Part shown: one piece after another, positions 1-32,000 of the stretch
How the letters are laid out: every line of letters begins with the position of its first letter
How positions within the stretch are numbered: position 1 is the stretch's first letter
Source of the DNA: Candidatus Saccharimonadota bacterium
Lineage (GTDB): Bacteria > Patescibacteriota > Gracilibacteria > BD1-5 > UBA6164
Length of the DNA stretch: 32,000 nt
Direction of reading: 5' to 3'
NCBI GenBank assembly: GCA_965229705.1
Contig: OZ245922.1
Location: 630,001-662,000 of the forward strand
Notes under the pieces: model-generated
Databases searched by the model: none
What the model saw: only the letters and a program-made list of their open reading frames with translations
Told to the model about the DNA's origin: nothing
Program-made: the position numbers and the translations under genes

Positions 1-1158
1 GACGAAAAACTCATCACCAACTCCCAAGAACTCAATACCGTTCTCTGATGAGGACTTGTACAAGGAAGTATCGTACTGCTTTCTGGTGAACCCTGAATCT
101 GAAAATCTACACTCACCCTCCAACTCTGATGATGGATACAAAGTGAACTTCTCTATATATCTGGGGAAGAAACTCTCGGACAAATATCTGGAAGAGCAAA
201 AAGACTCAATATCTCTGGGACACATATCAAACTCCTCTCTGAAAATAACCTCGAAAATATCCTTGCCACTCTTGCAAAACACCAAAGTAAAGTAGTGATA
301 CTCGACTCTATTTCCGTGATGTATAGCAATGAACTTTCTGGTACTGCTGGGAGTATCGGTCAAGTCAGGTATATAACAGAAAAAATCGTCGAATACGGAA
401 AACAACACAACACCACCTGTATTATCATAGGACATGTTACCAAAGACGGATCTCTTGCGGGACCAAAAACACTTGAGCACATGGTAGATACGGTTCTCTA
501 CTTTGAAGGAGAAAAGTTTGATGATCTCAGAATCCTTCGTAATCTTAAAAACAGATTTGGGAGTAGCAGTGAAATCTGACTGTATAAGATGTCCGAAACT
601 GGACTCTCAGATATCTCCAATCCTGGACTAGAATTTATTTCTGACGGAGATGATATTATTGGTTCTGCACTTTCAATAACGATGGAGTGATCTCGACCTC
701 TCGTCATTGAAACTGAGGCTCTCACCAGCTACACAAAGTTTTGATACCCTAAACGCTCTAGTAGAGGAATCGCGTGATCAAAGCTCGATCTCATTATTGC
801 CGTACTCAGCAAGTATACCCCTATCAAACTTGAGAGTTATGATGTTTATGCCAATATTTCTCGTGGACTCACATTTTCAGAACCAGGTCTTGATCTGGCT
901 ATTGCTGCAAGTATCATATCATCAAAAAGTGGAAAAAGCCTGTGTAAAAAATCTCTCTTTATTGGAGAGATATCTCTTACAGGAAAAATTAAACCAGTCG
1001 TATTTCTCGAAAAGCGTATCAAAGAGGCAGTAAAGCTCGGATTTACAGATATCTTTGTTGCAAAAAAAGCCTCAGCATTTCAGGATATCTGACAAAAAAA
1101 TACCTCTACAAAGATACACACTATTTCGCATATATCTGATCTCATAAAAAATATATAA
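1..1158 (+). CDS. radA: DNA repair protein RadA (5' end lies outside the window)
   Basis: Frame 1 is open from nt 1 to TAA 1156-1158 when TGA = Gly. It contains Walker A GEPGIGKST, whose two Gly are TGA at 94-96 and 100-102, plus LGGGL (TGA TGA at 46-51), the KNRFG motif and a Lon-like C-terminal domain. Confidence 0.92.
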
Positions 1159-2304
1159 ATGAAAAACTCTCTTCTTATTGCTCTTATTATGATATGCTCA
1201 CTTATCTCTGGGTTGATGTGAAGCGTATTTTTTACCTCTCTAACTCTGTCCTCATGAGAGAATAGAGAATTGAAAAACTCAAAAAAATATAATTCTCAAG
1301 TACCCACTGTCTCCCTCAAACAGCTTGAATCAGAAATCACACAAATTGTCGAAAAAATTTCTCCAAGTGTTGTAAGTATTGTGATATCAAAAGACCTCCC
1401 TATCTTTCGTAGTGATCCTTGGGGATTTTTTCAAGAACCTGCAGGAAGTGTTTCGAGAAAAATCTGAGGATGAAGTGGTTTTTTTATCAGTGAAGATGGA
1501 AAAATCCTTACCAATAAGCATGTTGTTTCTGATAAAAATGCTGACTATACTGTGGTGCTCAAAGATGGTTCTGAATATAGTACTGAGATTCTTGCTCTTG
1601 ATCCTATCAATGATCTTGCCGTAATACAGATAGTTGATGCGCAAAAAAAATTTACACCTCTCATAATCAATCAAGATATCTCTGAGTTACAGATAGGTCA
1701 GTTTGGTATTGCTATTTGAAATGCTTTGGCTGAGTTTCAAAACTCTGTTTCTCTATGAATCATCTCTGGGAAAAATCGAAGTATCACCGCAAGTGGAGAA
1801 ACACTCTCTGGACTCCTACAAACTGACGCAGCTATAAACCCAGGAAATAGTTGAGGTCCTCTTGTGAGCCTGAATGGTGAAGTAGTTTGAATCAATACAG
1901 CGATTGCCGCTCAAGGAAACTCTGTTGGTTTTGCCTTTGCCTTAAGTGCTGAACGCATTGAATATATACTACAAAGTATCGAAAAATCATGAAGGATTAA
2001 AAAGCCTTTTATCGGAATCAATTATATAGATATCACTCCTCGCACTGCTGATCAGTTTGATCTCTCTGTTGATTATTGAGCATATATATTTAACGAAGAT
2101 GGAGCTGTTGTTGGTGGAAGTAGCGCTGAAAAAAACGGTATTGAACCATGAGATATTATTTTGGAAGTTGGGTGAGTCCGAGTTCAGTGAGGGCTTCTTA
2201 CAAGTATCATACAAAATGCTCTTCCTGGAGATATTTTGAACTTAAAGATATTAAAAAAATCTGGAAAACAGAAAAATATCACTCTGGAACTTGGAGAGTT
2301 ATAA
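1159..2304 (+). CDS. htrA: HtrA/DegP-family serine protease (S1C protease domain plus PDZ domain) with an N-terminal membrane anchor
   Basis: The ATG directly follows the radA stop. The catalytic triad contexts are TNKHVV, NDLAV and GNSGGP (one Gly of GNSGGP is TGA at 1852-1854). A PDZ-like C-terminus is present. The frame holds about 15 in-frame TGA codons and ends at TAA 2302-2304. Confidence 0.88.
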
Positions 2305-2727
2305 ATAAAACAATATCACCGCAACAACTATTCCGAGAAGACTGCCTGCAAACGCTTCACTGGGAAGATGTCCAAGAGACTCTTTGAGCTGTGTCTCCTC
2401 AAAACGTTCGTTAATCATTTTTGCATGAAGGCCTGCCTCATATCGTACATTGATAGCATCGTATATGATAATCATTGTAAATCCCATGACAATGGCAAAC
2501 ATATCCGAATGAATCCCATGTTTGAGAGCAAAAGCTGTTGCCAGAGATACCACAAGAGATGAGTGTACTGAGGGCATTCCTCCACTTCCAAGCGCTTTTT
2601 CGAGATTCCATTTTCCACTTGAGATTTTTACGCTGATTCCTTTAAATATTACCGCAAGTAAAAAAGTCACTGCAGGAACCAGTATAATATACTCATAAAA
2701 AATATTGTACTCAAGTGTTCAGGTCAT
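2299..2727 (-). CDS. Divergent PAP2 / DUF212 membrane protein (acid phosphatase / vanadium haloperoxidase-related family)
   Basis: Contains the GGMPSVHSS motif typical of DUF212. ORF 2299-2670 extends through one in-frame TGA to ATG 2725-2727. The stop is TAA. Confidence 0.7.
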
Positions 2728-2737
2728 AATACCTTTT

Positions 2738-3223
2738 TTAAGATACTTCTAGGATTTTATATTCACCCATAGCTCATGCACCATTTTTGAGAGAAAAATT
2801 ATCTCCTTTCTTTTTTCATAAAAGCGCCTTTCCTACTGGAGACTCGTTTGAAATAGTTGGAACTTTAGCAAGTATATCTGCCTCTGTTGTTCATACTATT
2901 TTATATTGCTGTTTTTCTTTACTTCCTACTTCTTGAATTGTGACGAGCATCCCCATATTGATTTTCTTTCCTCCTGAAGTTTTTTCTTCTTTGATGATCT
3001 CAACTCTCTTGAGTTGGTCTTCAAGTTCTGTAATACGCAGTTCTACCTGCGCTTGTTCATTACGAGCATCTTCATACTCAGAGTTTTCTGATAGGTCTCA
3101 AAAACTAATTGCTTCTTTGAGTTTTTCTGCTATTTCAATACGCTTATCTTCTTTTAAAGATCGAAGTTCTTCCTGGAGTTTTGTAAGTCCTTCTTGCGTA
3201 AGGTATATTCGTTGATCTGACAT
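2738..3223 (-). CDS. greA: Transcription elongation factor GreA
   Basis: 161 aa. The N-terminal coiled coil reads LTQEGLTKLQEELRSLK...DLSENSEYEDAR, followed by a C-terminal globular domain (SNESPVGKALLGKK). Five in-frame TGA codons. ATG at 3221-3223 and TAA at 2738-2740. Confidence 0.88.
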
Positions 3224-3227
3224 AATG

Positions 3228-3932
3228 TTATTTTTGCTTAGGGAATAAATTTTGTAAAATATCTTCGACACTATTATAGGATTCTTTTTTTATTTTCAAT
3301 CAAAAAGCTCTTTTTTCATATGCAAAAACGAGGCGTATCTCATCATTGTTTTCATAATCTGCATTGGTATTTATAAAAAAAGATTTTTCGCCAAAAGAAT
3401 TTGTTTCGTTGAGAAAAAAGCCTTCTTCCTCTTCCAAGAGAGAAAATATTTTCAAAATATCGTTATAACTCTTTGTTGGAAAAATATACAGTGTCAGTTC
3501 TGGTGAATAATATTCATAGTAATTGTCAGGATATTCTCTCGTAAGACCAAAAAGTCGCGTTTGTATGAGAAGTTCTGTAATATCAAAGCGTTCTTGAAAA
3601 GCTTGCAACACTTCATTCTCATAAAATGTTAGCTCTGGGAGCTGCTCTTCATCGTCTGAAATATCTCATTTTTGTGACTCAACGACTTCGAGAAACGTCA
3701 TTCCTTTTTGTCTTTTTGAAACCACATCAAGGACCTTATCTATATCTCCATCAAGTTCATCTTGTATTTTAACTACTTCTTCGACATCGAGTATATTATC
3801 AGAACTCACTGTTTCACTCCCATACTTCATCTTTTTTACAAAAAATCGATAGTCATCACTCATAGCATACAAAACAATATTTGTAAGAGTTCCTACAAGT
3901 AATACTGCGAGAATAAATAAGAGTATACGCAT
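3228..3932 (-). CDS. Hypothetical membrane-anchored protein (N-terminal TM helix, acidic linker)
   Basis: ORFs 3666-3932 and 3300-3611 share a frame and join through TGA 3666-3668. The apparent stop at 3300-3302 is also TGA, and the frame continues to TAA 3228-3230. I recognised no family. Confidence 0.6.
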
Positions 3933-3942
3933 AAGAGATAAT

Positions 3943-4479
3943 TTATTTTACAACTATCTGAGAAAAATCGAGCTCTATAGGAGTATCTCGACCGAGTAAA
4001 TTAATATTTACTTTTACGAGACCTTTTTCTTCATTTACATGGGTAATCACTCCTTCATTTCCTTCAAACGCTCCTTTGGTAATCATGGCTCTATCACCTG
4101 ATGTAAATTTTGCACTAAAGGTTTCATCTTTGTCTTCGACTTTTCCTTTGAGTTTCTCCAGTTCTTCTCCAGAAACGGGAACCGGGATATTTCCTGCCCC
4201 AAGAAACCCTGTAACATTTGGAGTATTTCGCACAATATACCAACTCTCATTTGTCACTCGCATTTGCACAAGGATATATCATGGGAGAATATTTTTCTTC
4301 TTTTTGACCTTTGTTCCTCAGGCTCTTACCGATACAACATCGTGTGTTGGAACAAATACATCGAGGATATATTCTTCGAGGCTAAAGCTTTCTCTTCTCT
4401 GGAAGAGTGACTGTTTTACATTTTCTTCTGTTCCTGATATTACTTGTATTACATACCATTCTGGTTTTGCAGTTGTCAT
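3943..4479 (-). CDS. nusG: Transcription termination/antitermination factor NusG
   Basis: The NGN domain begins MTTAKPEWYVIQV.. and a KOW domain follows (GDRAMITKGAFEGNEGVI). ORF 3943-4269 extends upstream through two in-frame TGA codons to ATG 4477-4479. Confidence 0.9.
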
Positions 4480-4535
4480 ATATATTTATATTTTTATGAA
4501 ATAATATTATCCTTGATCATTCATAGGATATACTC

Positions 4536-4865
4536 TTATTGATCAGTTTCTTCTAGCGTTTCTCACTGTTCATCATCTATACTTATCTCTATTGCTGCTT
4601 CATCCGAGATAAGAGGAATCTCATCCTCGTTTCCGAGCATTCGGTTTATCTCTTCTATGGTTTGTGGTTGAGGAGCAGTTTCTCCTCAAATCATATCTTT
4701 GAGTCCAAAAATAATTGTCGAAAATATATTGCTAAAGAGAAACAAATAGAGCCCAAAAATGACTAGCATTATCAAAACGATATTAAAGTATTTTTGCGTT
4801 TCTTTTGTTGTGGGCCATACAACGTGTTTGAGTTCTCTTAGAGCTCATTTCACAAAGTGTATCAT
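4536..4865 (-). CDS. secE: Preprotein translocase subunit SecE (single TM helix) with a long acidic C-terminal tail
   Basis: Lies immediately upstream of nusG. The motif ELKHVVWPTTKET is followed by one TM helix. Contains 4 in-frame TGA codons (encoding MIHFVKG.., the GG pair in DMIGGE, and DEQGE). Stop is TAA 4536-4538. Confidence 0.72.
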
Positions 4866-8457: not shown

Positions 8458-9330
8458 CTACACTTCCAAACCAAAAAATACTTTTACCAACACTCCGATA
8501 AAAAAAGATATCAGTGCCACACACAGTGATATGAGAGCCATTTCGGTAAACCTCTTGGTAAAATTATAGTCTTTTGCAATAGATATATAAAAGTTGAAAC
8601 ATCATATGATGAGCAGCGCTACTCAGAGCGTTGTGAGCAAAGCGTAAAATGGATTTGATATCAAAAAGTATGGTGTTACAAGAAATATCACTGTCCCAAT
8701 ATAAGCACATCCAGTATACACACTTGAGATGATAGCCTGCTTTATATCTCATCACTGTTCTTGCCTCTGAGAGAGAAACTCACTTGCTGCCATAGAAAAA
8801 CTCGCAGAAATACCCGTAATCAGTCAGATAAGCGCAATACTTCGAGAGTTTTGAATGGCAAAGGTAAATCACGCAAGAGCCCCCGTAAGCTCTACTAAGG
8901 CGTCATTGAGTCCTAATACAATAGATCACATATAACTCAGTTTTGCTTCATGAAGCATATTGATGAGTTCTCTTTCATGTTGTTCCTCATCTTCGAGAAT
9001 ACGCAGGATTTCTGGATATTCTTGTCATAGAAGAGTGTATGATTCTTGGGCTTGAGACTCTCCTATTTCCATAAGTTTGAGTCCAAAAGTGAGACCAAGT
9101 ATTTTACTGATCATGATATACAAGTTCACTCTCCATCTTCGAGCCTGCACGTCTTTTTGTGTGAGTTCTCTCAGCATAATATAATGCTTTTTTTCATCTT
9201 CAGCTATAGACTGCAGGATATTTTTATTTTCTTCATTTTTTTCTTTTTTCGCAAGTCTGATGTAAATATCATGGCTTTCTGCCTCGTCTCTCTGCATCTG
9301 GATAAGAATATTTTGAAGTGTTTTTTGCAT
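8458..9330 (-). CDS. Ferritin-like (erythrin) domain fused to a VIT1/CCC1 iron transporter (MbfA-like)
   Basis: The N-terminal domain has paired E...ExxH motifs (EAESH, EKKH, ESQAQE, EEQH). The C-terminal part has multiple TM helices (LGLNDALVELTGALAG...). Nine in-frame TGA codons. Stop is TAG 8458-8460. Confidence 0.75.
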
Positions 9331-9405
9331 TTTGATATTTTTAGTGATATAGACCCTCTTTATTTCTCACAAATAGGAAAAAATGAGTCTATTTTTATAT
9401 TTGCC

Positions 9406-10152
9406 CTATTTGATCTTCGGAAAAAATATTGGCGTAGTTTTGCTATACTCTTGAAAATTTTTCTGATCTTTGTAACGATGTTCGAGAAATGGAACTCCCG
9501 AAACATATCGAAGCAGGAGAAACATCACAAGAGGAGAAACAAGAGCAAATATCGTTGCTTGCAGAGTGATAATAGAAATTCAGACCCAAAACATACTCTC
9601 TCCAAAATACTGAGGATAACGATGATATTTTCTGAGCCCTTGGGTGAGTATGTCTCATTTTTTCTTTGTCCTCATAAACTGAGCGAGTTCTGTATCTGCC
9701 ATGATCTCATATATGAGACCAAAAACCGCAATACCCGCTCAGAGAAAACTCAAAAATATACTTCCCTGAAATGAGGAAAGATTCATAAAAATAAGAGGAC
9801 CAGCTACACAGCACGCTAAAGCATACTGCAAACAAAAGACTTGGAGAAAGCCTCGAAGTATCGGATACTTCCATGATTTTCTCATCATGCGATAACGAAA
9901 ATCTTCCTTCCCTAATTCTTTCCTCTTTTTGAGAAAAATATGTAGTCCAAGCCTGAGACCCCAAACACAAATAAGAAATGTCAGTAGTGTATGAGTAGGA
10001 GTAAAGTTTTGTCACGCGGCATAACTTCATCACACTAAAACCACAAAGCTTATACCCCAGAAAATATCAACAATAGAATTGTCTGTATATTTTATGCTAT
10101 AGAGAAACTGACACAAGAAGATACATGCAAGAAAAAGAAATACATATAACAT
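9406..10152 (-). CDS. DUF1295 family membrane protein (steroid 5-alpha-reductase / ICMT-like fold)
   Basis: 248 aa with multiple TM helices and the diagnostic block GLRKYHRYPQYFGESMFWVG. Six in-frame TGA codons. The ATG at 10150-10152 lies 3 nt after the stop of the upstream gene. Confidence 0.75.
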
Positions 10153-10701: not shown

Positions 10702-11835
10702 ATGAAGATTTTTCCATTTGCAGATATCCTTTTATGGTATAAAAAATATGGTCGCCAGTGACTGCCATGGAGAGAATACCATTATGACGCAAAAACTCTT
10801 GGGTATCGTGTATGGCTCTCGGAAACGATGCTCCAACAAACACAGGCAGAAAGAGTAAAAAACTATTTTACAAATATTATCACCGCTTTCCCCACTGTTG
10901 AAAGTCTCGCTCGTAGTGAATATGAAGACTTTTTTTACTATTATAAATGACTGTGATATTATTCTCGGGCTCGTAATATGCTAAAAGCAGCAAAGATTGT
11001 GGTAGAAGACTTTTGATGAGTGTTTCCAAAAGAAACTTCTCAGTTACAAAAACTTCCTTGAGTATGACCTTATACCGCTGAGGCTATTCGCGCATTTAGT
11101 TATGATATTGCTACCCTATCTTTTGATACCAATCTTGAAAAAATATTTGCGAGATATTATCATGGAGATAAGTGTAAAAAACTGACACAAAAAGAGAAAG
11201 ACGAACTCATAGGGCAGTTTGAAAAATTTTGTAAAAAAACACAGTGAAATGAGTGAATTTCTCGCAGTATTAACAATGCTCTTATGGATTTTTGAGCTCT
11301 CGTTTCTCTTGCAAATCCTGATACTATAGACTGGGAAAATTATCCCTTAAAAGACTGTAAGTTTTATAGATCTCAGGGAAATCTTGAGGAAAAAAAACCA
11401 AGAAACATATCCCGTTTCCCTCATAAGCAAGCATATATCATAGCTGTGCTTCATAAAGATCATAAGAAATATTTTTCTGACACTCATCGTCTGCTCAATC
11501 AAAACGAGCAACATATATCTTCATATTCTCTTTGAGAAAAGAGCCTAAAAATAAGAGATACAGCGAAAGGGTTTATACCTTTTTTTATATGAAAAAATAC
11601 TGGAAATCCTCGCGATCAAATACAAAAATATTTTATGAAAAACTATCATCTTGAGGTCTCTGTTCGTCCTCCAGAAATAAAGTCCTATAATCAGTATGAA
11701 GCTCCCTATATCGTGTGCTATTGCCAAGTGCAGTCGTGAACACATACCTTTGAAGTGTATGAGGATATCAAGGTAAGAGGTTTTGAAGAATGATATGTGG
11801 AGCTATTGGAGTTTTGAGAACAAAGACTTTTTTAG
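10702..11835 (+). CDS. mutY: A/G-specific adenine DNA glycosylase MutY (HhH-GPD domain plus NUDIX-like C-terminal domain); Fe-S ligands appear to be missing
   Basis: Family blocks present: LLWYKKYGRQGLPWR, VWLSETMLQQTQ, GLGYYSRARN and LPGVGPYTA (both Gly of LPGVG are TGA at 11059-11061 and 11065-11067). One continuous frame with about 20 in-frame TGA codons. Stop is TAG 11833-11835. Confidence 0.85.
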
Positions 11836-13548: not shown

Positions 13549-14943
13549 ATGTATACACGCTCACTGTTCTGGTTCAGGCAAGATCTCAGAGTTTATGATA
13601 ATACAGGACTCTTTGAGGCAGTACAAAACTCCAGAGAAGTACTCCCCATCTTCATCCTTGACTCACATATAATCGAGGGATTTTGAGGGGTCAGTAACGA
13701 AAAATTTTGATTTATTCGTGAAGCCCTTGAAGATGTTTCACAAGAACTCAAAAAACTCTGATGAAACAAGCTTATTGTCTTTCATGGAAAACCTGAAGAA
13801 ATAATTTCTCGGCTAGTAAAACAGTACAAAATCGAATGCGTGTTTACCAATACTAGCTATGGAAGTTATGGGAAAAAGAGAGATGAAAAAATATCTCAAA
13901 TCTTGAGTGAATGAGACTGTCACTTTTCTTCTCATAAAGATTTTCTTATCGCAGAACCTCACGAAATAGAGCAAAGAAAAGTATTTACTCCCTACTACAA
14001 ACTCTGGCAAAAATACATTATAGAAAATCCTCAAAGCATCAAAATAGTCCCAAAAATCAACTCTTTTAACCAACTCAACACCAAAGAACAAAGTGAGGCT
14101 GGAGACTTTATCCCCAGCAAAAAACATCCCTACTTTACAATGGATTTTGGTCGTGAACGCTTTGCAAAACTTCCTTTTCCACAATACAGCGACAACAGAA
14201 ATAATCTTGATAGAGATGGGACTTCTCGACTTTCTCCCTATCTCAGATTTGGAATTTTTTCTGTCAGACAGATATATAATGCCGTTCTCTCATGAGACTC
14301 CCTGTCAACATTGACCCAAAGAGAGATACAACAAAAATGATTCCCAGAAAAATGAACACATGAAGAAAGCTTTATCAGTGAAATAGCGTGGAGAGAGTTT
14401 TGGTGGCAAATATTTTATAATTTTCCTAATACAAAAACCACCGAATTTCAAGAAAAACGAAGACATATACCTTGGTCTCAAGATACAGCGTTATTTCACA
14501 AATGGATGCATGGAGAAACAGGCTATCCTATAGTAGATGCTGCCATGAAACAGCTCAAAAAAACACACTGGATGCATGGAAGGGCTCGCATGATTGTAGC
14601 AAGTTTTCTCACAAAAGATATGCACCTTGACTGGAGACTTGGAGAAGCGTATTTTCGAGAAATACTTCTCGACTATGACGAGGCTGTCAATCTCGGAAAC
14701 TGGCAATGGTGAGCAAGTGTCGGAGCCGACCCAAAGCCACTTCGCATATTTAACCCTCTTTTGCAAAGCGAAAAGTTTGATTCCAAAGCAGTATATATAA
14801 AAAAATATCTCCCCGAACTCGAGCATGAAAACGCTGAGGATATTCATAATCCCCTCGACTCTTCCCTCAACTATCACGCACCTATTGTTGATCATCGCAT
14901 CGAGACAAAAATTGCGCGAGAAATGTATAAAATACCTGAATAA
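13549..14943 (+). CDS. phr: Deoxyribodipyrimidine (CPD) photolyase, class I / DASH-like
   Basis: Family blocks present: LFWFRQDLRVYDN, TSRLSPYLRFG, TGYPIVDAAMKQL..HWMHGRARMIVASFL and NLGNWQWGAS. Ten in-frame TGA codons. Stop is TAA 14941-14943. Confidence 0.88.
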
Positions 14944-14946
14944 TAT

Positions 14947-15960
14947 ATGAACATGAATCTTTTTTTTATTTGTACACTTTTTATTTTCTGAACCCTCTTT
15001 TGAAGTTTTGCGTCTGTTTTGATTTATAGAATCAAAAGTTGAGAGTGAGGAATATGGTGAGGACGAAGTCATTGTAAAACCTGTCAGAGAAACCTTTCAG
15101 TCCTTGAACTGATACCAATATTTTCTTGGGTAATACAAAGAGGCAAATGCGCATCATGCTCATCAAAAATCTCTCCTATATATCCCCTGCTTGAACTGAC
15201 TACAGGAGTCCTTTTTAGCTGCGTGTGAATATTTCTTATATCGCCGGAACTCATAGCCTTATGAGATATACTTGAGTGGTGAAGACTCTTGTTTTTCTGT
15301 TTTCTCATATTTTTGACGATTATATATGTTTTCTACGATATCCTCTACCTAGAAATCCCCGAAAGCATCCTCATGATAGCAAATGTATCTGTACTCTGAG
15401 CTCTGATTTTTCAATCACACTGATATACTATTATCCCCTACTTGGCAGTATGAAACATAGATACACTCTCCTTTGTTTTTTCACTCTCTGTCTTAGCAGT
15501 CATGTACACCATTATATTTGCGGGACTGAGTGAAATATATGATTGTCTCCTCCTGTGAGTATGCTACGCTTGTGCGTACTTGTTGTTTCACTTTTTTTCC
15601 CTCCCAGTCTGAGACTCTGCGCTGGTGTCTGGAGTACTTGCAGCACTTGTGATATACTCTGTATTTTTTTTACAAATTGTTATTTCTGGAGGAAGAGCTA
15701 TGGGGGCTGGAGACCTGCGTATAGCGATACTAATGTGACTAGTTTGTTGACTAGGTTTTGCTTTTTCTGCCTTTATGATATGTTATCTCATAGGAAGTAT
15801 TGTGTGAATAGGGATGATTCTTGTTTCAAAAATTTATGGGCAGTCTCGAGGTAATAAAAGTTCTCAAATTGCTTTTTGACCTTTTATTGCTTGTGGGTAT
15901 ATATCTGTATTATTCTTTTCTTCCTCTATTTCCCGATTTATAGAGTGGTATATATATTAA
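14947..15960 (+). CDS. pilD: Type IV prepilin peptidase / N-methyltransferase PilD (A24 family)
   Basis: The ATG lies 3 nt after the photolyase stop. It has an N-terminal Zn-ribbon (CKTCQ...CASC) and the two Asp motifs YDILYLEIPE and GAGDLRI. About 20 in-frame TGA codons within the TM helices. Stop is TAA 15958-15960. Confidence 0.85.
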
Positions 15961-18050: not shown

Positions 18051-18078
18051 ATACAAGAGCTTATGCCATGATGGTATA

Positions 18079-18176: not shown

Positions 18177-18222
18177 ACCGGTCTCGAGTTACTTATTTCA
18201 AAGGCTTGAGACCGGTCTCTTA
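18171..18222. repeat. Two copies of the GC-rich 12-nt palindrome GAGACCGGTCTC (18174-18185 and 18208-18219); the first extends to the 18-nt palindrome CTCGAGACCGGTCTCGAG
   Basis: Read directly from the sequence. The site lies between the convergent 3' ends of nth and the 18254-18535 gene and is probably a bidirectional terminator. Confidence 0.6.
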
Positions 18223-18253
18223 GACAAGATTTTTCTATTTTGCAGAGCTTCTT

Positions 18254-18535
18254 TTATGCAAGTTCTGTAACCTTTTTGAGTTTTTCGCTGTCATGGCTTC
18301 TTTGAAGTTTTTGCATTTCCTGTCAGAGAGATACAACTTCTTCTGCTACAATATCACTGTTATCTGGATCGTCTTCCACAATTGCCATGAGTTTGGTTTG
18401 AAATTCTTGAAAACTCTGGAAAAATCTGGGATGTATTTTCTCCTTGAGATCATGAAATGTGTCTTGTAATTGGCGTTTTGACTTCTTTTTTTGTTGACTG
18501 TCGAAGTACTTTTGCAGTCACGAACTTACTACCAT
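18254..18535 (-). CDS. Hypothetical small helical protein (93 aa)
   Basis: ATG at 18533-18535 and TAA at 18254-18256. Two in-frame TGA codons. Charged, coiled-coil-like composition. Confidence 0.45.
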
Positions 18536-18553
18536 AAAAGGATTTATATATAT

Positions 18554-18850
18554 TTATTTTATAGAAGACTGTAGAGATTTGAGTTCTTGAGAACTCTCTG
18601 CGTAAAGTGTTCTTTTTTTTGCGAGGAATATTTTTTCTTCTATTTTTTTGAGCGTATTTCAGAAGAGTATTTGCTGTTCTTCAAAATGCTTTTCACGCAT
18701 TTTTTCGATATCAGTCATCACTCTGTGAGCATTTTCAAGAAAATTTTTTCTCTTATGTGGTGGAAGAAAAGAAAATATCTGCAGATACTCATGTCTATCT
18801 TTTTTGCTTATGTTCAAACTTTCAAAGATTTTTTGCAGTTCAGTATTCAT
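18554..18850 (-). CDS. Hypothetical small helical protein (98 aa)
   Basis: ORF 18659-18859 continues through TGA 18659-18661 to TAA 18554-18556. ATG 18848-18850 is preferred over the upstream TTG. Confidence 0.45.
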
Positions 18851-19044: not shown

Positions 19045-19962
19045 TTAATACTTTTTTAATACTTCATATTTCTTAAACCAGGTTATCTGTCTTTTTGCAT
19101 AATTTCGAGAGTGTTGTTGAATCTTGCTTCTTAATTCTTCTCAAGAGATTTTTCCCTGAAAATATGAAAAAAACTCTTTATACCCTATAGTATTCATAGC
19201 AAAATCATCTTGCGTGTATCACTGTTGCATGAGTTTTTTAAGTTCTTCTTCAGCTCAAGATTCAAGCATTTTTTCTACTCGGGTATCAATTCTCTGGTAC
19301 AATTTCTCTCTATCAGAGAAATCTGGATGCAAAAACAGTACATCATACTTGAGTTTTTTTTCTGCGCGAAACTCTTGCTTTGACTTTCCTGTAGAGAGCT
19401 TCACTTCTATAGCTCTTTCTACATAAGGTCTATTGTTTGGATGAAGTTCTTTGGCGTACTCGGGATCTATTTCTTGAAGTTTTCGGTAAAGCTCCTGTTT
19501 TGTAAGCGTTTCTAGGCCTTTTCGTAAAAGGGTATTTGTAGAAACATCAGAGGCATTTCTCTCAAAAATAATACTATCTATATAGAGCCCTGTACCTCCT
19601 ACGAGCATTGGTATCTTTTTTCTTTGGTATAAGTTTTGTAGTATTTTTTCTGCCTGTCTCACAAATTCTCACAAAGAAAATACTTCATTTGGATCTACAA
19701 TATCTATCATGTGGTGTGGAATTCCTTGTTTTTCTTCTGATGTGATTTTCCCTGTTCAGATATCCATATTTCGAAATATCTGTCGTGAGTCAGCAGAAAT
19801 AATTTCTGTATCAAGGTATTTTGCAATATCGATACTCATCGCTGTTTTTCACGAAGCCGTTGGTCCATAAATAACAATCAGTTTGGGAAGCTCTGAAGGA
19901 GTTTTGAGGAAAGTGTCTATGAGTTTTGTATCTTGTAAAAGATGTTTCTTCGTCTCTATCAT
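19045..19962 (-). CDS. miaA: tRNA dimethylallyltransferase MiaA
   Basis: The P-loop is GPTASGKT, whose second Gly is TGA at 19849-19851 (complement). Other blocks: ISADSRQIFRNMDIGTGK and a C-terminal AKRQITWF. Six in-frame TGA codons. Stop is TAA 19045-19047. The start at ATG 19960-19962 is uncertain. Confidence 0.85.
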
Positions 19963-19994
19963 ATTTTTTCTGAGAAATCGAATTGGCAGTATCA

Positions 19995-20103
19995 TTAAAG
20001 AAACTCTGAAAAATAGAAAAATTTCTCATCCTCTCTGGCTCTATAGAGTCATCTCTCTTTTTACAAAGGAGAGAAAAAAATGAGCTTCTCAGAGCCTCCT
20101 TAA
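19995..20103 (+). repeat. MITE-like structured repeat, copy B
   Basis: Ends are TTAAAGAAACTCTGAAAAAT ... GCTTCTCAGAGCCTCCTTAA. Internal hairpins are GGCTC-TATA-GAGTC and CTCTCT-N9-GGAGAG. Collinear with copy C. Confidence 0.8.
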
Positions 20104-20167
20104 TATATCGAAAAAAATTTGACTTTCAAATAGCTCTCAATAATATCTGCTGCGCTATAGTAATAAT

Positions 20168-20243
20168 GCCACTTTAGCTCAGTTGGTAGAGCACTCGCCT
20201 TGTAAGCGAATGGTCGTCGGTTCAAGTCCGACAAGTGGCTCCA
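20168..20243 (+). tRNA. tRNA-Thr (anticodon UGU), CCA encoded
   Basis: Hand-folded cloverleaf. Acceptor stem GCCACTT/AAGTGGC, anticodon loop CTTGTAA, T-arm GTCGG-TTCAAGT-CCGAC. Confidence 0.9.
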
Positions 20244-20376
20244 TTCTTCGCTCTTTTCGCTATCGCTCATTCGAGTTTCGAATGCTGTAGCCATAAAATA
20301 GCAAAGAAAAACACACAAACTCAAGCGAAGGATGTCCTCCAAAGCTTTATGCGAAGGACGGACATTTTTACTTTTT

Positions 20377-20461
20377 GGGCAGATTCCAGAGCGGTCAAAT
20401 GGGGGGGACTGTAAATCCCTTGGCTTAGCCTTCGGGGGTTCGAATCCCTCTCTGCCCACCA
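20377..20461 (+). tRNA. tRNA-Tyr (anticodon GUA), long variable arm, CCA encoded
   Basis: Acceptor stem GGGCAGA/TCTGCCC, anticodon loop CTGTAAA, variable arm TGGCTTAGCC, T-loop GGTTCGAATCC. Confidence 0.9.
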
Positions 20462-20472
20462 TAATGTTTTAT

Positions 20473-20500
20473 GCCCAGGTGGTGGAATTGATAGATGTGC
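20473..20500 (+). pseudogene. Duplicated 5' fragment of tRNA-Leu (acceptor 5' strand plus D-arm only)
   Basis: The first 18 nt (GCCCAGGTGGTGGAATTG) are identical to 20593-20610 and the next ~10 nt differ only by transitions. No matching 3' acceptor strand (CCTGGGC) occurs before the intact gene. Confidence 0.6.
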
Positions 20501-20592
20501 GAAGCCATACTCCCGAACGAAGTGAGTGGGGTGCACGCGTTGCGTGTCGTCATCAGTCAGTTGAGAATCACATTACATGAATCATAGTTTAT

Positions 20593-20676
20593 GCCCAGGT
20601 GGTGGAATTGGTAGACACGCTGGTCTTAGAAACCAGTGCCTTTGGCGTGGAAGTTCGAGTCTTCTCCTGGGCACCA
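20593..20676 (+). tRNA. tRNA-Leu (anticodon UAG), type II, CCA encoded
   Basis: Acceptor stem GCCCAGG/CCTGGGC, anticodon arm CTGGT-CTTAGAA-ACCAG, long variable arm, T-arm GGAAG-TTCGAGT-CTTCT. Confidence 0.9.
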
Positions 20677-20837
20677 AGATCTCTGAAAAGAGATTATACC
20701 CAAAAAATTATGTTAAATTGACGGCATATCCAGTCTGCTCGATATATAACACTCTTTCTGATTTGCTGTAGCCTATCACAAGAGATACTTAATATTTTTT
20801 TGTACCGTATAAAGCGGGCAAGTAAAAACATATTTTT

Positions 20838-21104
20838 ATGAAAAAAGATATCCATCCTGTAAGTAGAAAAGTAGCATTTGTAGAAAACGGAAGTGGTTTT
20901 GTACTGATCACACATTCTACGGTAAAAACAGATACCACTCATACTCATGAGTGAGTAGAGTACCCAAGTGTGTATGTAGAAGTTAGTTCACAGACTCATC
21001 CTCATTATACAGGTGAGAAGAGGATTCTGAAAACTGGCGCTGTTGATAAGTTTTATGCTCGTCAGAAAAAAATGGAAGAAATGCAAAAAGCAAAGAAGAA
21101 ATAA
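20838..21104 (+). CDS. rpmE: 50S ribosomal protein L31 (Cys-free, type B-like)
   Basis: Begins MKKDIHPVSRKV and contains VEVSSQTHPHYTGEKR and GAVDKFYAR. One in-frame TGA. The protein has no Cys residues. Confidence 0.85.
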
Positions 21105-21527: not shown

Positions 21528-22094
21528 ATGGCTGTTAGTAAACAACAAAAGACTGAGATACTCGCTGACCTGGTCTCAAAATTTACACATGCACAATCTA
21601 TTGGTTTTGCAGCAACAGATACTCTCACAGTAGAAGAATTTTGAAGCTTGAGAAACTCATTGCGAGAAGTACATGCGAGCTATACTATTGCGAAGAAAAC
21701 ACTCATCGTAAAAGCAATGAAAGATGCCCTAAACTGTGAAGTTGATCTTGCTCAACTCCCAGGGCAAATTTGAGTAGTATGTTCAAATGAAGATGCCGTT
21801 GCAGGTCTTGGGAAAGTAAATACTCTCGTAAAAGAGACAAAGGGAGAAAAAATCTCTTGGGTAGCAAGTTACATGGAGGGAAAAATGATGAATGCAGAAG
21901 AGACGCAAGCTCTCGCAAGTCTTCCTGCAAAAAATGTTCTTCTTGGGCAACTTGTTGGCGTGATATCTGCTCCACTGACAAAACTTGCTGGAACACTTGA
22001 CGCAACTGTCGCTGGTATTGTTCGGGTTACAAAATCTGCTGGTGATAAAGCTCGAGAAGCAGGGAAAGAAAAGCTTGCTGATATAGCAGTATAA
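21528..22094 (+). CDS. rplJ: 50S ribosomal protein L10
   Basis: Begins MAVSKQQKTEILADLVSKF. Two in-frame TGA codons. Absorbs ORF 21873-22094. Located upstream of rplL. Confidence 0.88.
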
Positions 22095-22254
22095 TTTTTG
22101 AAACTTGTGTAGTAATTCTTTTTTTGTCCGATGAAGAAAAGAGTTACTCACTAGCTGCAAAAAGCTAGAAAATGTCATCTTGTCCCGAGGCTGGGACAAG
22201 CTTCCTAAGTTTGGGAAAAGATGACAATACTTTATATACTAACTTTAAAAGACC

Positions 22255-22653
22255 ATGTCTGAAGAAGTAAAACTCAGTGCAAACGCACAAAAAGTTCTTG
22301 ATCTTGTATCAGATCTTAGTGTTCTCGAAGTTGCTGATCTCGTAAAAGCAATGGAAGATACATTTGGTGTAACTGCTGCAGCTCCAGCAGCGGTAATGGC
22401 AGCTCCAGCAGCTGGTGGTGAAGCAGCTGGTGGTGAAGCTGAAAAATCAAGCTTTAATGTAGAGCTCACAAATGCTGGTGGACAAAAGATTGCTGTTATT
22501 AAGGTAGTAAAAGAGATCACTGGTCTCGGTCTTGGTGAAGCAAAAACCCTCGTTGATAACGGATGAGTTATCAAAGAAGGAGCATCAAAAGATGAGGCTG
22601 AAGAAATCAAAGGAAAACTTGAAGAAGCTGGAGCAACTGTTGAATTAAAATAA
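22255..22653 (+). CDS. rplL: 50S ribosomal protein L7/L12
   Basis: Has the Ala-rich hinge and the block [23 protein letters not shown] 22255-22566 continues through TGA 22564-22566 to TAA 22651-22653. Confidence 0.92.
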
Positions 22654-22666
22654 GTTTTTTCATAAG

Positions 22667-22712
22667 AAAAAGTCGAAAGTTCCACCACTCTTTCGACTTT
22701 TTTCTTTTTTTT
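22667..22712 (+). terminator. Intrinsic terminator after rplL
   Basis: The stem AGTCGAAAG/CTTTCGACT has a 10-nt loop and is followed by TTTTTCTTTTTTTT. Confidence 0.7.
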
Positions 22713-22774
22713 GCATTTGCAGTTTTATCTTTATACTTCATTCTACTTTTCTCAGAAGTAAACAAAATATACAT

Positions 22775-22848
22775 TGGGGTATGGCCAAGTGGTAAGGCAG
22801 GGGACTCTGAATCCCTGATCGGGGGTTCGAATCCCTCTACCCCAGCCA
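22775..22848 (+). tRNA. tRNA-Gln (anticodon CUG), CCA encoded
   Basis: Acceptor stem TGGGGTA/TACCCCA, anticodon arm GGGGA-CTCTGAA-TCCCT, T-loop GGTTCGAATCC. Closely resembles the E. coli tRNA-Gln architecture. Confidence 0.88.
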
Positions 22849-22862
22849 AAAAAATAAAAAAA

Positions 22863-22896
22863 AGTACTCTTGAGAGTACTTTTTATGTTTTTTATC
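22863..22896. terminator. Hairpin AGTACTC-TTGA-GAGTACT with flanking A-run and T-run (bidirectional terminator)
   Basis: Lies between tRNA-Gln (+) and the 3' end of the minus-strand gene 22905-23378. Confidence 0.55.
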
Positions 22897-22904
22897 GTAA
22901 TACT

Positions 22905-23378
22905 CTAACTCTCAAGATTTACAAACTCTGTTCTCTCTCCATCAAGATCAGCTCACAGCTTATAGAGCTTGACTCACTCTGGGTGTTGACCAAGAGTATT
23001 GAGAAAAATATCTTTTTCATCTCCGTATGGAATCACAAGTTTTGCCTCGATATTTTCAAAAATCTTCACAGCATCTTTTGTCCCAATAATTATAAGTATA
23101 TCTACATCTCAAAAAAAAGCAACTATTTCTTCCTTGAGATCAAAACTCTCGCTTGTTACAATACAGATATGCTTTCCATCAATAAGAAATTTGTAGAAAA
23201 GAATATCTGTATACTTTTTTACTTCTAAGAGATTCCCTGACTTTTCATATTCTCATGGATGAGACACATCCACATCTTCGAGAAATACTTTTTTTGTATT
23301 ATAGTCAAAAAACACTTCTTTTTTTTCCGTATTTTTAATACTGAGAGTTGATGGATTTTTATAGCTGATTTCTATCAT
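22905..23378 (-). CDS. Hypothetical protein (157 aa)
   Basis: ATG at 23376-23378 and TAG at 22905-22907. Four in-frame TGA codons. The frame was checked codon by codon. It only vaguely resembles MBL-fold proteins, and no HxHxDH motif is present. Confidence 0.5.
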
Positions 23379-23458: not shown

Positions 23459-23911
23459 CTATACAAAGAAAAGTTTATTTCGATAAATAATACCCGACAG
23501 ATCAAACCTCACCGAAAAGTCTTGGATTTTCTCAACATCAATCCACTCATAACCAACAAATCGTTCGTCTTTTCGAACGTAGGGTTTTTTCTTTCCTGTA
23601 TACTTTACGATAAATAGGTATACATCTTTATCTATCATTGGACTTCACTCAAGGTAGGCAGCAGTATAAGTATAATTGAGTTTACTCACAAACTTTATTA
23701 TCTCAAGATCATGAGTGTTGAGACCTGCTTCTTCGGATATTTCTCTGAGAGCAGCATCCTTGGCAACTTCACCTGACTCTATTTTTCCTTTTGGAATAAC
23801 AAACTCAAGCTTATTAGCAGAGTTTCTCCACTTTAAAAGCAGTATCTCAATATTTCCATTTTTCTTTCTATACACAATGCCTCCTGAACTTGTTTCGTGC
23901 TTTTTTGGCAT
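23459..23911 (-). CDS. NUDIX hydrolase
   Basis: The NUDIX box reads GKIESGEVAKDAALREISEEAGL. ORF 23645-23911 continues through TGA 23645-23647 to TAG 23459-23461. Confidence 0.8.
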
Positions 23912-26807: not shown

Positions 26808-28661
26808 TTATGATGCTGTTTTGCAGTGATCAGAAACAACACTATTTCCTATTTGCTTATACCTCTCATAAAAATCTTCCACAAATTTTCTGACATGTTC
26901 CTGTTTTGGAAAATATACACCTTTTTCTCTTACCGTATATTCAAACAAAAAGTTTCCTGCCTCCATCTGCTGAAGATAGGTAAATATTTGCTGCGTATAC
27001 ACTGCAGTATATAACTCTCTCAAAGCCTGAATATTCTCCTCACTCATATGAAGACATATCTGTCATCACTCATAGCTTATGAGCCCCGACTGAAAGAATA
27101 TATGCAAATGTATCAAGCACTCACAATAATACGGAATAATATCTTCTACTTCTCTATACCTCATCATTTTTATCGAACGCATAAGGTGCGTGATGAGTAT
27201 ATGCTCATCAAGAGGAGACGGTCATTTCAAAAAATATGCTACAAGTCCACCAGCAGTTGCCTTGAACTCTTCGATGTTTTTAAAAAGTCCTTTTTCTCAT
27301 ATCTTGATTTCACATCATGGAGTGAGCCATAGCGTATGACCATATTCATGCCCTATGGTTTCTCTATCATATACTTGATAATACTCTTCTTCTGAACCGT
27401 TGAGAAAGTCATAATATTTCTGTAAAATCTCTGCAGATATCATCTCCTGATCAATCTGCATTTTTGGAAGAGATCTTTGAGAGTCAAGCACATACTTTGG
27501 AAATGCAAATATCTTTTTCCCATACACCTTACTCACCTCATCATCATTTGGAACAACCTGAGCGCTATACGCTCAACAAAGAAACGACCCATAAGCAAGC
27601 ACTGGAGCACTAATATAGAGCTGTACTTTTTGTTGGTTTTTTAAAGAGTATTCATAGCTTTCTGGAAAATTTTCTCTTCCTATCTCATCATACATTCACT
27701 CATACATATGTAGTACATCTGCTGATACTTGTGAACGAAAAAGACTTGGATCAAGAAGACGCATATCAAACTCGATAGATACTGCGCGGCGATACCTATC
27801 CTCATAGTATTCTATCGGATGACCTGGTTGCACAGGAGTATCTATTGCCATCCATTTTCTATCTACTTCTGCCCATTTTTCAACAAGTAGGTGTGTATGT
27901 GTTTCACTCAGAGCATTTTTTATTGATGAGAAATATTCTCTGTATGCTGATTTTCTATCAAATACCGTATCATCGAGCTTATCAAGCTGCTCTATAAACT
28001 CATCATACAGCGCTGATATTTCTGAAATATCTTCTGGGAAATGCTCTTTATAAGAGAGAGATACATATGAGTTTTCCTCTAGTGTGAGGATAGAGTATGA
28101 TCTATCTGCCGTCAATCCGTAGTGTCACGGATCAAAAAGCTGGTTTTCTGCAAGGTAATCCATGACCGCATCATGATCTCCATGAAACTGCTTTTCCAGT
28201 TGTCTATTGGTCTCAAATAAGAGTTTTCTATTCCACTTTAAAAAAAGTCGTGAGTAACATTTTCCAAGTTTATGAGTATAGAGAAATATTGTTCTGTAAA
28301 AATCTGTTAAAAGACTTTCAGAGTATATGTCTTCTATCATTTTTCATTGAAGAGCCTCATAATATTCTTGCACAAAACGATAGGAGAGTTCAAAAGCTCT
28401 GTCTCTTTCTTCTTGTGTTTTTCATATTTTTTCGAGATAGATATCAAGAGCTTCAAACTTTTTTTGTCCGATACGAGTAGCTGCAGCAAAGTATGTTTCT
28501 TCGTTTTTGTCGAGTTGCAGTACATCTAAGATATCATCGAGCACTTTTCTCTGCCAGTTATTTTTTGAGATTCCCTCTGAAAGACTGTTGAGGTGTTGCT
28601 CATTTTTTTGAAAAAGTTCATGTATACGAGAAACATCTTGTAGAAATGCTGATGTATTCAT
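26808..28661 (-). CDS. Large (617 aa) zinc-metallopeptidase-like protein, HEYGH...EEFKAT (DPP III / M49-like, tentative)
   Basis: Five listed ORFs (28422-28661, 28125-28340, 27696-28115, 27315-27536, 26808-27047) share one frame and are bridged only by TGA codons. The bridging segments were checked codon by codon. ATG at 28659-28661 and TAA at 26808-26810. Confidence 0.75.
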
Positions 28662-28717
28662 ATGATATTTTTATGTATTTTCCGTGCCTGGTTAGTATAT
28701 TATTTTCTGATAAAAAT

Positions 28718-30424
28718 CTACTTTTTCTTCCATCCATAGCTGATATTTTGACTCCTTTTTTTATCTCATGAAAACTTTCCTCAGGAAAATCATCTATGCC
28801 CTCATCTTCTTCAAGAAGATCAGTAAGAAGCTGACGAAGAGTCTCTTCCCTTTGCCTGAACTACAAGAGGTTTTCTCCTATTTTTTACTTTATAAAAATC
28901 TAGTACCACCGCCGCAACATCGGGATGAACATTCATATATGAAAATTTTTCTAAGATATCTATTTTCCCCACATCTCCCAAACGAATACCAACCTCGTCT
29001 TCGAGGAAGCGTATCAGTGTTCCTGGATTCATTCCGTCTATTTTTCCTTTTGCAATAAAAAGTCTCTGTTCTCCTGTTGGTGAAATATGAGGTCCCCTCT
29101 CAGAAATAACACTGTATGAAGACTCATCAAATCGTTTTTCATACGCATCTTTGAGAAGAGAGGCAACAATAACTTCTGCTTCTCAAAGCGTGAGAAGCTC
29201 GAGTGCGAGGCTATCAAATTTTTCATATCATCCTCCTCAAATACTGTGAGTGAGGCGCTGTATTAGTCTCTTTTTTTGCAATGATACTACATCTTTTGCG
29301 CTTGGAATTTGTTGTTTTTGTATTTTTTGTTTGAGGAGTCTCTCTATAGCAAAGAGTTTTCGCATATCTATTCGTGAGACAAATGAGATGGCAGTTCCTG
29401 TTTTGCCTGCTCTTGCCGTTCTTCCAATACGATGAGTATAGGTTTCTGCGTTATCTGGAAGAGAATAATTCACAACATGCGTGAGATCATCAACATCTAT
29501 TCCTCTGGCAGCTACATCTGTTGCTACGAGTATTTTGCTCTTTCCTGACTTAAATCGGGCTAATATTTTTTCTCTGTGTTTTTGCTCAATATCTCCATGT
29601 ATTCCCTCTGCCTTGAGTCCTCTTGCCATCAGTCCTGAAGCAACTTCATCAGTATCCATCTTGGTTTTACAAAATACGATCCCATAAAAATCTTCTGTTA
29701 TATCTATCACGCGTGAGAGTGCTTCAAACTTATTTCTTGGAGAGACTTCATATAAGATTTGCGTGATTCTCTCGGAGATGCTTGTTTTGGACTCGATTTT
29801 TACGGTTTCATAGTCTCCCATGTGTCGCTTAGCAATAGTGAGTATTTCTCGAGGCATAGTAGCAGAAAAGAGCAGAGTCTTTTTATTTTCAGGGGTGTAG
29901 CTCATGATTTCTTCTATTTCTTCTCTGAAACCAATATTGAGCATTTCATCTGCCTCATCAAGGATAAAGTAATCTATATCTGCAACTTTAAGAGTCTTTT
30001 TAACGACGAGATGATCTGTGATTCGTCCTGGAGTTCCGACAACAATATGAGGTCCGTTCTTGAGCGATCTGACTTCGTCTCGGATATTTTGTCCTCCATA
30101 AAGAAGTGTTATTTTGACTCAAGCGTCTGCAAATGATCCTATTTCTTGAGCGACTTGTATTGCGAGCTCTCGAGTGGGAGTGAGAATCATAGCTTGTATC
30201 CCTGCTTTGCTCATATCGAGTTTATCGAGTAATGGAAGTCAAAAACTCGCTGTCTTTCCTGTCCCTGTCTGGGCTTGTCCGAGAACATTTTTTTCTCCTG
30301 AGAGTAGGAGTGGTATCACTCAAGCTTGTATGGGGCTTGGGTGTTGGTAGCCTTTTTTTTCTATTGCTTGAAGGAGTGTTTCTGAGAGTCAAAGGTCTCG
30401 GAAATGTAGAGTCTGTTCTGTCAT
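28718..30424 (-). CDS. DEAD-box ATP-dependent RNA helicase with a DbpA-type C-terminal RNA-binding domain and a Gly/Arg/Ser-rich tail
   Basis: Motifs present: Q-motif, AQTGTGKT, PTRELA, DEAD (LDEADEM), SAT and HRIGRTARAG. The N-terminus extends from ORF 29237-29944 to ATG 30422-30424. The C-terminus continues through ORF 28820-29032 to TAG 28718-28720. Confidence 0.9.
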
Positions 30425-30682
30425 AGTAATTTTACAAAAAAATAAAGAGACATATCTCTCTCTCATAGTGAGTGAGTGTCATACACAAAATAATTATTCA
30501 AAAATCTCGCCTAAAAGAGATATTTCTGATAATCGGTATTTTGTAGAAGAAATGTCTCTTTGTGGAATATGCTTTGCATATCTATGTCGAGCGGGACTAT
30601 ACAAAGAAAAAAATGTAAAGCAAGCTTTTTTGAAAAAAGTATTGTTTTTTCTATTTTTATGTATATAAAATATTTACACTTC

Positions 30683-30789
30683 TTAAGGAACCTCTGAAAA
30701 ACGAAAATTTTCTAATCCACTCTGGCTCTAACGAGCCATCTCTCCTTTGCAAAAGGAGAGAAAAAAGGAGTTTTTCAGAACTTCCTTAA
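30683..30789 (+). repeat. MITE-like structured repeat, copy C (most complete copy)
   Basis: The terminal inverted repeats are TTAAGGAACCTCTGAAAAAC ... GTTTTTCAGAACTTCCTTAA (17 of 20 positions complementary). Internal hairpins are GGCTC-TAAC-GAGCC and CTCTCC-TTTGCAAAA-GGAGAG. Confidence 0.85.
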
Positions 30790-30843
30790 TGAAGCGAGTT
30801 AAACTTTTAATCTCGCTTCATGAGAGGCGAAGAAAGGACTAAA

Positions 30844-30999: not shown

Positions 31000-31012
31000 C
31001 AGGTATACACTA

Positions 31013-31040
31013 AAAAAGGAGCGTTATAACGCTCCTTTTT
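31013..31040. terminator. Bidirectional intrinsic terminator (perfect palindrome AAAAAGGAGCGTTATAACGCTCCTTTTT)
   Basis: Read directly from the sequence. Lies between convergent genes. Confidence 0.8.
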
Positions 31041-31041
31041 A

Positions 31042-31266
31042 CTATTTTATTATATTCTTCCAGTTCATAATACTCAGCACATACCCTGCAGCAAGTCCCC
31101 AAAAAAACATATACACCCATACATCAAGTGATAAAAGCACTGGGAAAGCCTTTGCAATCCAAAGTGTTGAAAAAACAATCATCAACTTAAATATCATTAT
31201 GTCACGAATTGTCATTCTATGAAGCGTGTCCATAGATTCTTGGATATATCTTTGGTAAAAGTTCAT
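31042..31266 (-). CDS. Hypothetical small membrane protein (74 aa)
   Basis: This is the 3' part of ORF 31042-31365. The start is placed at ATG 31264-31266 because the upstream part overlaps the MAPEG gene, whose stop is at 31317. Two TM helices. Confidence 0.35.
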   Translation of the reverse strand: MNFYQRYIQESMDTLHRMTIRDIMIFKLMIVFSTLWIAKAFPVLLSLDVWVYMFFWGLAAGYVLSIMNWKNIIK

Positions 31267-31316
31267 AAAAAAAGAAAAAATATATAAATCGTATCTTAGA
31301 AAAAAATTGCGAAAAA

Positions 31317-31703
31317 CTACAATAGTATTCCAGAAATTGCCAGTAATAACATACTCACCGTACACAAAAGAGAAATCAGAAATGGAATCATACGCTTTTT
31401 AGGATCTTGCTGATACATAACTGCATACAAAATACGCGAAATAATCCATATTCATCAAATAATAGCAGCAGCTATCTCATAACCTCAAAATGTCGCTACC
31501 CACAATAAGGGAAGAAATACCATCACGCTCTCTAGCGTATTTACCTGAATACGATGAGCAATGATAAACTCTGTATTTTTAGTCGTATAGGTCTCATATG
31601 ACTGAACCTTGTGTTTTGAACGCATAGTTCCAACCCTAAAGGCAAGAAGTACCTGTAAAAGAGAGATAACGCAAGTAATCAGACCTGCATATTCATAGTG
31701 CAT
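31317..31703 (-). CDS. MAPEG-family membrane protein
   Basis: ORF 31485-31703 continues through TGA 31485-31487 and a TGA-TGA doublet (31452-31457) to TAG 31317-31319. It is 128 aa with 3-4 TM helices and an IWIISRILYAVMY block. Confidence 0.6.
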
Positions 31704-31797
31704 AATAAAAAGTTATAAAAATAACTCTTGTATTGTAGTTTCATTATCTATTTACGCAAACTCAATCAACTATTTATGAAAAACTTTTTCAATAGTA

Positions 31798-32000
31798 CTA
31801 ATCTTTTACATACTCCCCTGCAAACTTACTCGTGAGACTCACAAAATCTGAGATATTTTTGAGTTCTCCTCACTCTAAAAGTACTGCCTGCATATAGGCG
31901 TAGTTGATAAGATCTTTGAGTTTTTTGGATTTTATATCAGACTGAAACTCTTTCTTCATCGCTTTTACCAGCTTATTGTTTGGGTTGAGTTCTAGGATAC
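31798..32000 (-). CDS. htpG: Molecular chaperone HtpG (Hsp90), C-terminal end only
   Basis: The sequence ILELNPNNKLVKAM...LINYAYMQAVLLEGGELKNISDFV matches the Hsp90 C-terminal region. Stop is TAG 31798-31800. The gene continues beyond the window. Confidence 0.7.

Follow-up and report, generated by a model that had tools for sequence, protein, structure and literature searches.

Evidence that UGA is read as glycine (genetic code 25) in a chromosomal segment of a Gracilibacteria bacterium

We analysed a 32,000-bp stretch of bacterial DNA (hereafter the window) whose genes contain frequent in-frame UGA codons. The window is almost certainly a chromosomal segment from a Gracilibacteria bacterium of the BD1-5 type, within the candidate phyla radiation (CPR), translated with genetic code 25, which reads UGA as a regular glycine codon and has UAA and UAG as its only stops. 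In universal motifs, UGA is found where glycine is invariant, and among relatives it swaps freely with GGN codons. Three independent comparisons, with homologues of solved structure in the PDB, with 80 relatives and with a near-identical strain, strongly support glycine and exclude tryptophan. An earlier interpretation made from the nucleotide sequence (hereafter the sequence-only reading) had proposed that UGA is read as glycine across the whole window, and each of these comparisons bore it out. The code is an already known one in a known lineage, correctly read, and involves no new biology.

UGA as a sense codon in the window

Only a model that treats TGA as sense yields long open reading frames (ORFs), which counts in favour of code 25. 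When ORFs of at least 100 aa were measured from stop to stop, they summed to 0.73 times the length of the window under the standard code, with a maximum of 293 aa, and to 2.07 times with TGA as sense, with a maximum of 620 aa. Treating TAG or TAA as sense gave sums of 1.15 and 1.28 times, respectively, the maximum staying at 293 aa in both.

The gene set was curated by a greedy pick of long ORFs, after which spurious antisense or overlapping ORFs were exchanged for real genes. The resulting 36 protein-coding sequences (CDS) and four tRNA genes leave the window 86% coding. The CDS contain 195 in-frame TGA codons (2.1% of codons), with 12 in-frame TGA-TGA tandems, and terminate in TAA (24) or TAG (12) and never in TGA, in agreement with the earlier statement that every gene ends in TAA or TAG. 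Seven TGA-sense ORFs were judged spurious, being antisense to or overlapping real genes or tRNAs: 4000-4749, 9031-9819, 18141-18605, 20302-20862 and 22560-23228 on the plus strand, and 8564-9103 and 22165-22644 on the minus strand. The features that they cover are nusG, secE, a VIT1-like gene, a DUF1295 gene, rplL or tRNAs.

The window and its main read-through genes are as follows.

1..32000, no strand: chromosomal segment in which UGA is decoded as glycine; 36 CDS, 4 tRNA genes, 195 in-frame TGA
1..1158, plus: radA, 5'-truncated by the window edge; 11 in-frame TGA; LGGG at 46-51, Walker A GEPGIGKST at 94-96 and 100-102
1159..2304, plus: htrA/degP-type serine protease; 13 TGA; GNSgGP at 1852-1854; Trypsin_2 match
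2738-3223: greA; Pfam GreA N- and C-terminal domains both matched
3943-4479, minus: nusG; housekeeping gene with in-frame TGA
4536-4865, minus: secE; housekeeping gene with in-frame TGA
10702..11835, plus: mutY; 15 TGA; LPgVg at 11059-11061 and 11065-11067; CGG at the conserved arginine of YYSRARN
11911-13398, minus: photolyase-family gene, DPRP/cryptochrome-like
13549..14943, plus: class I CPD photolyase; 9 TGA; conserved tryptophans (WQW, AWREF, HWMH) all TGG
14947..15960, plus: prepilin peptidase (A24); 17 TGA, the densest in the window
19045..19995, minus: miaA; 6 TGA; P-loop GPTASgKT at 19849-19851; IPPT matched over 1-242 of 243
20838-21104, plus: rpmE (L31)
21528-22094, plus: rplJ (L10)
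22255-22653, plus: rplL (L7/L12)
23459-23911: NUDIX gene
26808..28661, minus: DUF7897 protein, 617 aa; 10 TGA, no frame change
28718..30466, minus: DEAD-box/DbpA RNA helicase; 13 TGA; DEAD, Helicase_C and DbpA matches

All seven TGA positions that the sequence-only reading had quoted from conserved motifs are correct in frame and strand (plus for RadA, HtrA and MutY, minus for MiaA), positions 46-51 being TGATGA.

Translations used in profile searches carried X at every TGA to avoid bias. The full-length matches proposed as a check on TGA as sense were obtained, with Pfam models covered end to end: the DUF7897 model was matched over 2-594 of 595 (E = 1.5e-158) across its 10 TGA codons, and the photolyase ORF matched FAD_binding_7 over 1-202 of 203 in addition to DNA_photolyase. 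Further matches from the X-containing translations were to YHYH, DUF1295, MAPEG, VanY, L31, L10, L7/L12, NusG and SecE. Since in-frame TGA occurs in essential housekeeping genes, pseudogenes or assembly errors are ruled out as its source. TGA is scarcer in the ribosomal protein genes, where rpmE, rplJ and rplL together have just 4 per 408 codons.

The helicase ends in an Arg/Gly/Ser-rich C-terminal tail (28718-28850, minus strand; SYgSSgRRgGHRgFSgGKFSg) in which TGA encodes 6 of the 8 glycines; with UGA as tryptophan, the same tail would become implausibly Trp-rich.

An origin from phages, some of which recode stop codons, was considered and dropped, given that the genes include housekeeping ones and that the contig, of which the window makes up about 3%, is about 1.0 Mb long. 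The ribosomal proteins, nusG-secE, radA and miaA, together with the size of the contig, point to a cellular chromosome and not to a phage.

The amino acid at UGA

For each of six families, the residue opposite every aligned TGA was scored in the best PDB match, giving 50 positions.

RadA (S. pneumoniae RadA, 5lkm): glycine opposite 7 of 10 TGA, in LGGG, both Walker A glycines, EIG, MEG and FG
HtrA (DegP-like chain): glycine opposite 9 of 11, GNSGGP and VVGIN among them
MutY (E. coli MutY): glycine opposite 8 of 10, in GLGYY, HGG, LPGVG and DLG
MiaA: glycine opposite 4 of 6, in the P-loop TASGKT and in DIGT
DEAD-box helicase: glycine opposite 2 of 7
Photolyase: alanine opposite four TGA, glycine opposite one and serine opposite one; tryptophan never

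Overall, glycine stands opposite 31 of the 50 positions (binomial P about 1e-22 against a glycine background of 7.5%) and tryptophan opposite none. This tabulation confirms the earlier assertion that glycine, not tryptophan, fits the motif positions.

The same question was addressed at the codon level with 80 related loci, gathered by scanning the GTDB species representatives with RadA. An exact 36-mer of the window has no match among these representatives, so the genome of the window is not one of them. To pair codons, 200 pairs of orthologues (RadA, HtrA, DUF212, GreA and neighbouring genes) were compared by local blastp and aligned pairwise.

Window TGA to relatives: 1481 pairs, of which GGN 588, TGA 322, TGG 0
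Relatives' TGA to window: 1668 pairs, of which GGN 949, TGA 322, TGG 0

In both directions together, none of 3149 aligned codon pairs joins TGA with TGG. The profile of window TGA codons (39.7% GGN and 21.7% TGA, followed by Ala, Ser, Asn and Asp) is close to that of window GGN codons (45.6% GGN and 28.0% TGA) and unlike that of TGG, which is 60% Trp followed by Phe, Leu and Tyr.

The near-identical strain, here L081, is represented by a 58.7-kb ENA metagenome contig, which aligns with the window over about 17 kb at 96-97% identity. Among 4495 compared codons, 426 differ, and 289 of these differences are synonymous under code 25, which points to purifying selection on full-length ORFs. TGA is involved in 11 differences; nine are exchanges between TGA and GGA or GGG, and none is an exchange between TGA and TGG.

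Codon composition leads to the same amino acid. GGN codons account for 4.4% of all codons, GGN and TGA together for 6.5%, and TGG for 0.77%; glycine content is normal (6.5%) solely when TGA is counted as glycine. TGA then provides 195 of 599 glycine codons (32.6%), ranking second behind GGA. By this share the window strain is a heavy UGA user, while its decoding shows no difference from known code 25.

Lineage, decoding machinery and alternative readings

Glycine at UGA was reportedly described in 2013 in Absconditabacteria (SR1) and Gracilibacteria (Campbell 2013; Rinke 2013). Proteomics confirmed it for a BD1-5 bacterium (Hanke 2014, PMC4032931), and the genomes now credited with code 25 number in the hundreds and belong to GTDB class JAEDAM01, with its orders BD1-5 and Absconditabacterales (10.64898/2026.05.24.727570). 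The window resembles code 25 Gracilibacteria (BD1-5/GN02) and Absconditabacteria in its frequent UGA as glycine, its use of only UAA and UAG as stops, its low GC content and its small genome. The sequence-only reading had further held that the reassignment is limited to these two groups, and the literature agrees (Shulgina & Eddy 2021, PMC8629427; bioRxiv 10.64898/2026.05.24.727570).

Almost all of the nearest relatives by RadA are Gracilibacteria. The top RadA matches, at 82% and then 70-75% identity, come almost entirely from Candidatus Gracilibacteria metagenome-assembled genomes; by this single marker and the titles of the records, the best eight comprise seven Candidatus Gracilibacteria, at 70-82% identity, and one that bears just the title 'bacterium'. 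Absconditabacteria are named in none of the 80 locus titles from the RadA scan. The low GC content (35.8% for the window) and the contig of about 1.0 Mb also fit the Gracilibacteria lineage.

Relatives likewise hold in-frame TGA in radA, and applying the standard code makes their ORF coverage collapse. The extent of TGA use differs among them: at RadA identities of about 70-75%, L002 and L006 have one TGA in radA versus 11-13 in the window (11), L001 and L003. The more distant loci L021, L022, L023, L027, L037 and L055 (GC 37-57%) have none and may represent sister lineages with the standard code. Many in-frame TGA codons nevertheless occur in several records titled 'Candidatus Peribacteria'.

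We also examined CGA and CGG, since these codons are read as tryptophan in some Absconditabacteria and possibly in some Gracilibacteria (PMC8629427). The window shares with that variant UGA as glycine and the rarity of CGG (8 codons, or 8.8 per 10,000), but differs from it in placing CGG at conserved arginines and in that CGA is not rare. CGG occupies a conserved arginine twice, in YYSRARN of MutY (aligned with YYARARN of E. coli) and in SSYRS of VanY. CGA, at 70 per 10,000 codons, stands opposite Arg in 57% and Lys in 13% of cases in relatives, and AGG, at 39 per 10,000, pairs mainly with Arg and Lys. The window codons give no sign of a second reassignment (CGA/CGG to tryptophan), the CGG sample being small (n=8), and all three codons appear from these alignments still to act as arginine.

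By analogy with the lineage literature, UGA would be read by a dedicated tRNA-Gly with anticodon UCA, release factor 2 (RF2, prfB) would have been lost, and release factor 1 (RF1) alone would serve UAA and UAG. Gracilibacteria that read UGA as glycine carry tRNA-Gly(UCA) and are without RF2 (PMC8629427; gTranslate preprint 10.64898/2026.05.24.727570), whereas in the exceptions, which retain RF2 and have no such tRNA, UGA is a stop codon (PMC8629427). The tRNA genes of the window are the following.

20168..20676, plus: tRNA-Thr(UGU), tRNA-Tyr(GUA) and tRNA-Leu(UAG)
22775-22848: tRNA-Gln(CUG)

An Rfam search of the window returned these four tRNAs and nothing else, and there are no release-factor genes within the window, with its small share of the contig.

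Two observations weigh against the code 25 reading. About 38% of the TGA codons aligned to distant homologues stand opposite residues other than glycine, a share that is expected of variable alignment columns and that has its counterpart in GGN codons, which spread similarly. Moreover, tRNA scans of the window and of 81 related loci (about 1.2 Mb) turned up no anticodon UCA; this absence from the searched DNA bears on the proposed mechanism and not on the decoding itself. We give only a slim chance to the possibility that UGA is glycine here without the canonical machinery (no tRNA-Gly(UCA), or RF2 kept together with context-dependent termination), or that the branch falls outside the class of BD1-5 and Absconditabacterales and would represent an independent origin of code 25.

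The alternative that survives best, though very improbable, is that UGA has a dual role, mostly glycine with termination in some contexts, or that its decoding does without a dedicated tRNA-Gly(UCA) and relies, for instance, on an unusual near-cognate tRNA. The decoding machinery of this genome is indeed known only by extrapolation, which leaves room for such a scheme. However, TGA codons are evenly distributed along genes with no enrichment near 3' ends (KS p = 0.85), all 36 CDS end in TAA or TAG where homologous profiles are fully covered, and the published pattern of tRNA-Gly(UCA) and RF2 described above runs counter to such a scheme.

Code 4, in which UGA is tryptophan, is used by Mycoplasmatales, by several insect endosymbionts such as Hodgkinia, Zinderia, Nasuia and Stammera, and by some Eggerthellaceae. 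These systems are like the window in that UGA is plainly a sense codon, in their reduced AT-rich genomes and in the presumed loss of RF2. An exact look-up in a public protein collection also found L31, GreA, L10 and the NUDIX protein of the window, on a 1,006,762-bp NCBI/ENA contig, only with tryptophan at the TGA positions; the glycine versions of these four were absent from that collection. Such tryptophan-only entries are an artefact of an automated pipeline that evidently called genes with code 4 and got about a third of the glycines in these database proteins wrong; as gene-caller output they are no evidence for tryptophan. Unlike in code 4 systems, no TGA in any comparison stands opposite tryptophan or TGG: tryptophan is missing from the PDB-aligned positions, and exchange between TGA and TGG is missing from the orthologue pairs and even from the near-identical strains, although it is a single transition that code 4 would render silent. 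Code 4 would also raise tryptophan to 2.9% of residues and leave glycine at 4.4%, and the glycines of the Walker A motif GxxxxGK[ST] in RadA and MiaA cannot be tryptophan. We therefore regard code 4 as extremely improbable here and glycine as the reading of UGA.

The standard code, with TGA as true stops within pseudogenes or at sequencing errors, programmed readthrough or selenocysteine sites, has a negligible probability: it is the default expectation for bacteria and nothing more, and against it stand 195 in-frame TGA codons at none of which a frame change is needed, the presence of TGA in essential genes (nusG, secE, rplJ, rplL, rpmE and radA), the same ORFs and recoding in dozens of independent assemblies, the mostly synonymous strain differences with the purifying selection on full-length ORFs that they imply, and a TGA frequency far beyond any selenocysteine usage.

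Other features of the locus and consequences for annotation

Three intergenic copies of a conserved repeat, about 100 nt long and 79-90% alike, lie at 18078-18173 (minus), 20008-20107 (plus) and 30697-30790 (plus). The repeat contains two strong hairpins, GGCTC-N4-GAGCC and TCTCTCC-N-GGAGAGA, together with an A-run, with a predicted fold of -34.9 kcal/mol (z = -5.9 versus shuffles), and had no match in Rfam. Among 81 loci, its core pattern was found in the sister strain L081 only. The copy at 20 kb lies directly upstream of the tRNA-Thr/Tyr/Leu-rpmE cluster. The element may serve as a regulatory leader or represent a small mobile repeat.

The two photolyase-family genes stand back to back, the DPRP/cryptochrome-like gene on the minus strand and the class I CPD photolyase on the plus strand, with mutY, nth and radA nearby. 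Paired photolyases and repair genes are notable in a reduced CPR genome, which suggests a light-exposed habitat.

Synteny between the window and L081 ends at about 13467, and L081 (1-2646) has two TPR genes where the window has the DPRP gene. Compared with the window, L081 also has about 417 bp of inserted sequence immediately downstream of tRNA-Gln, at around window position 22900 (region 22905-23378, minus strand); this insertion sits inside an extra ORF of 141 aa (L081 12044-12469).

The choice of code has direct consequences for annotation. A standard-code annotation splits the 36 genes into about 230 pieces; the sequence-only reading, which had expected about 170 fragments instead of about 40 genes, was right in kind, with a fragment number slightly low (about 231 pieces, against 36 CDS plus four tRNAs). 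Under code 4, tryptophan replaces about one third of the glycines, catalytic and P-loop ones included. For Gracilibacteria, misannotation of this kind harms family profiles as well as homology searches and structure prediction. The main value of the finding is thus practical, as an annotation warning; biologically, it is one more well-supported case of a reassignment documented since 2013.

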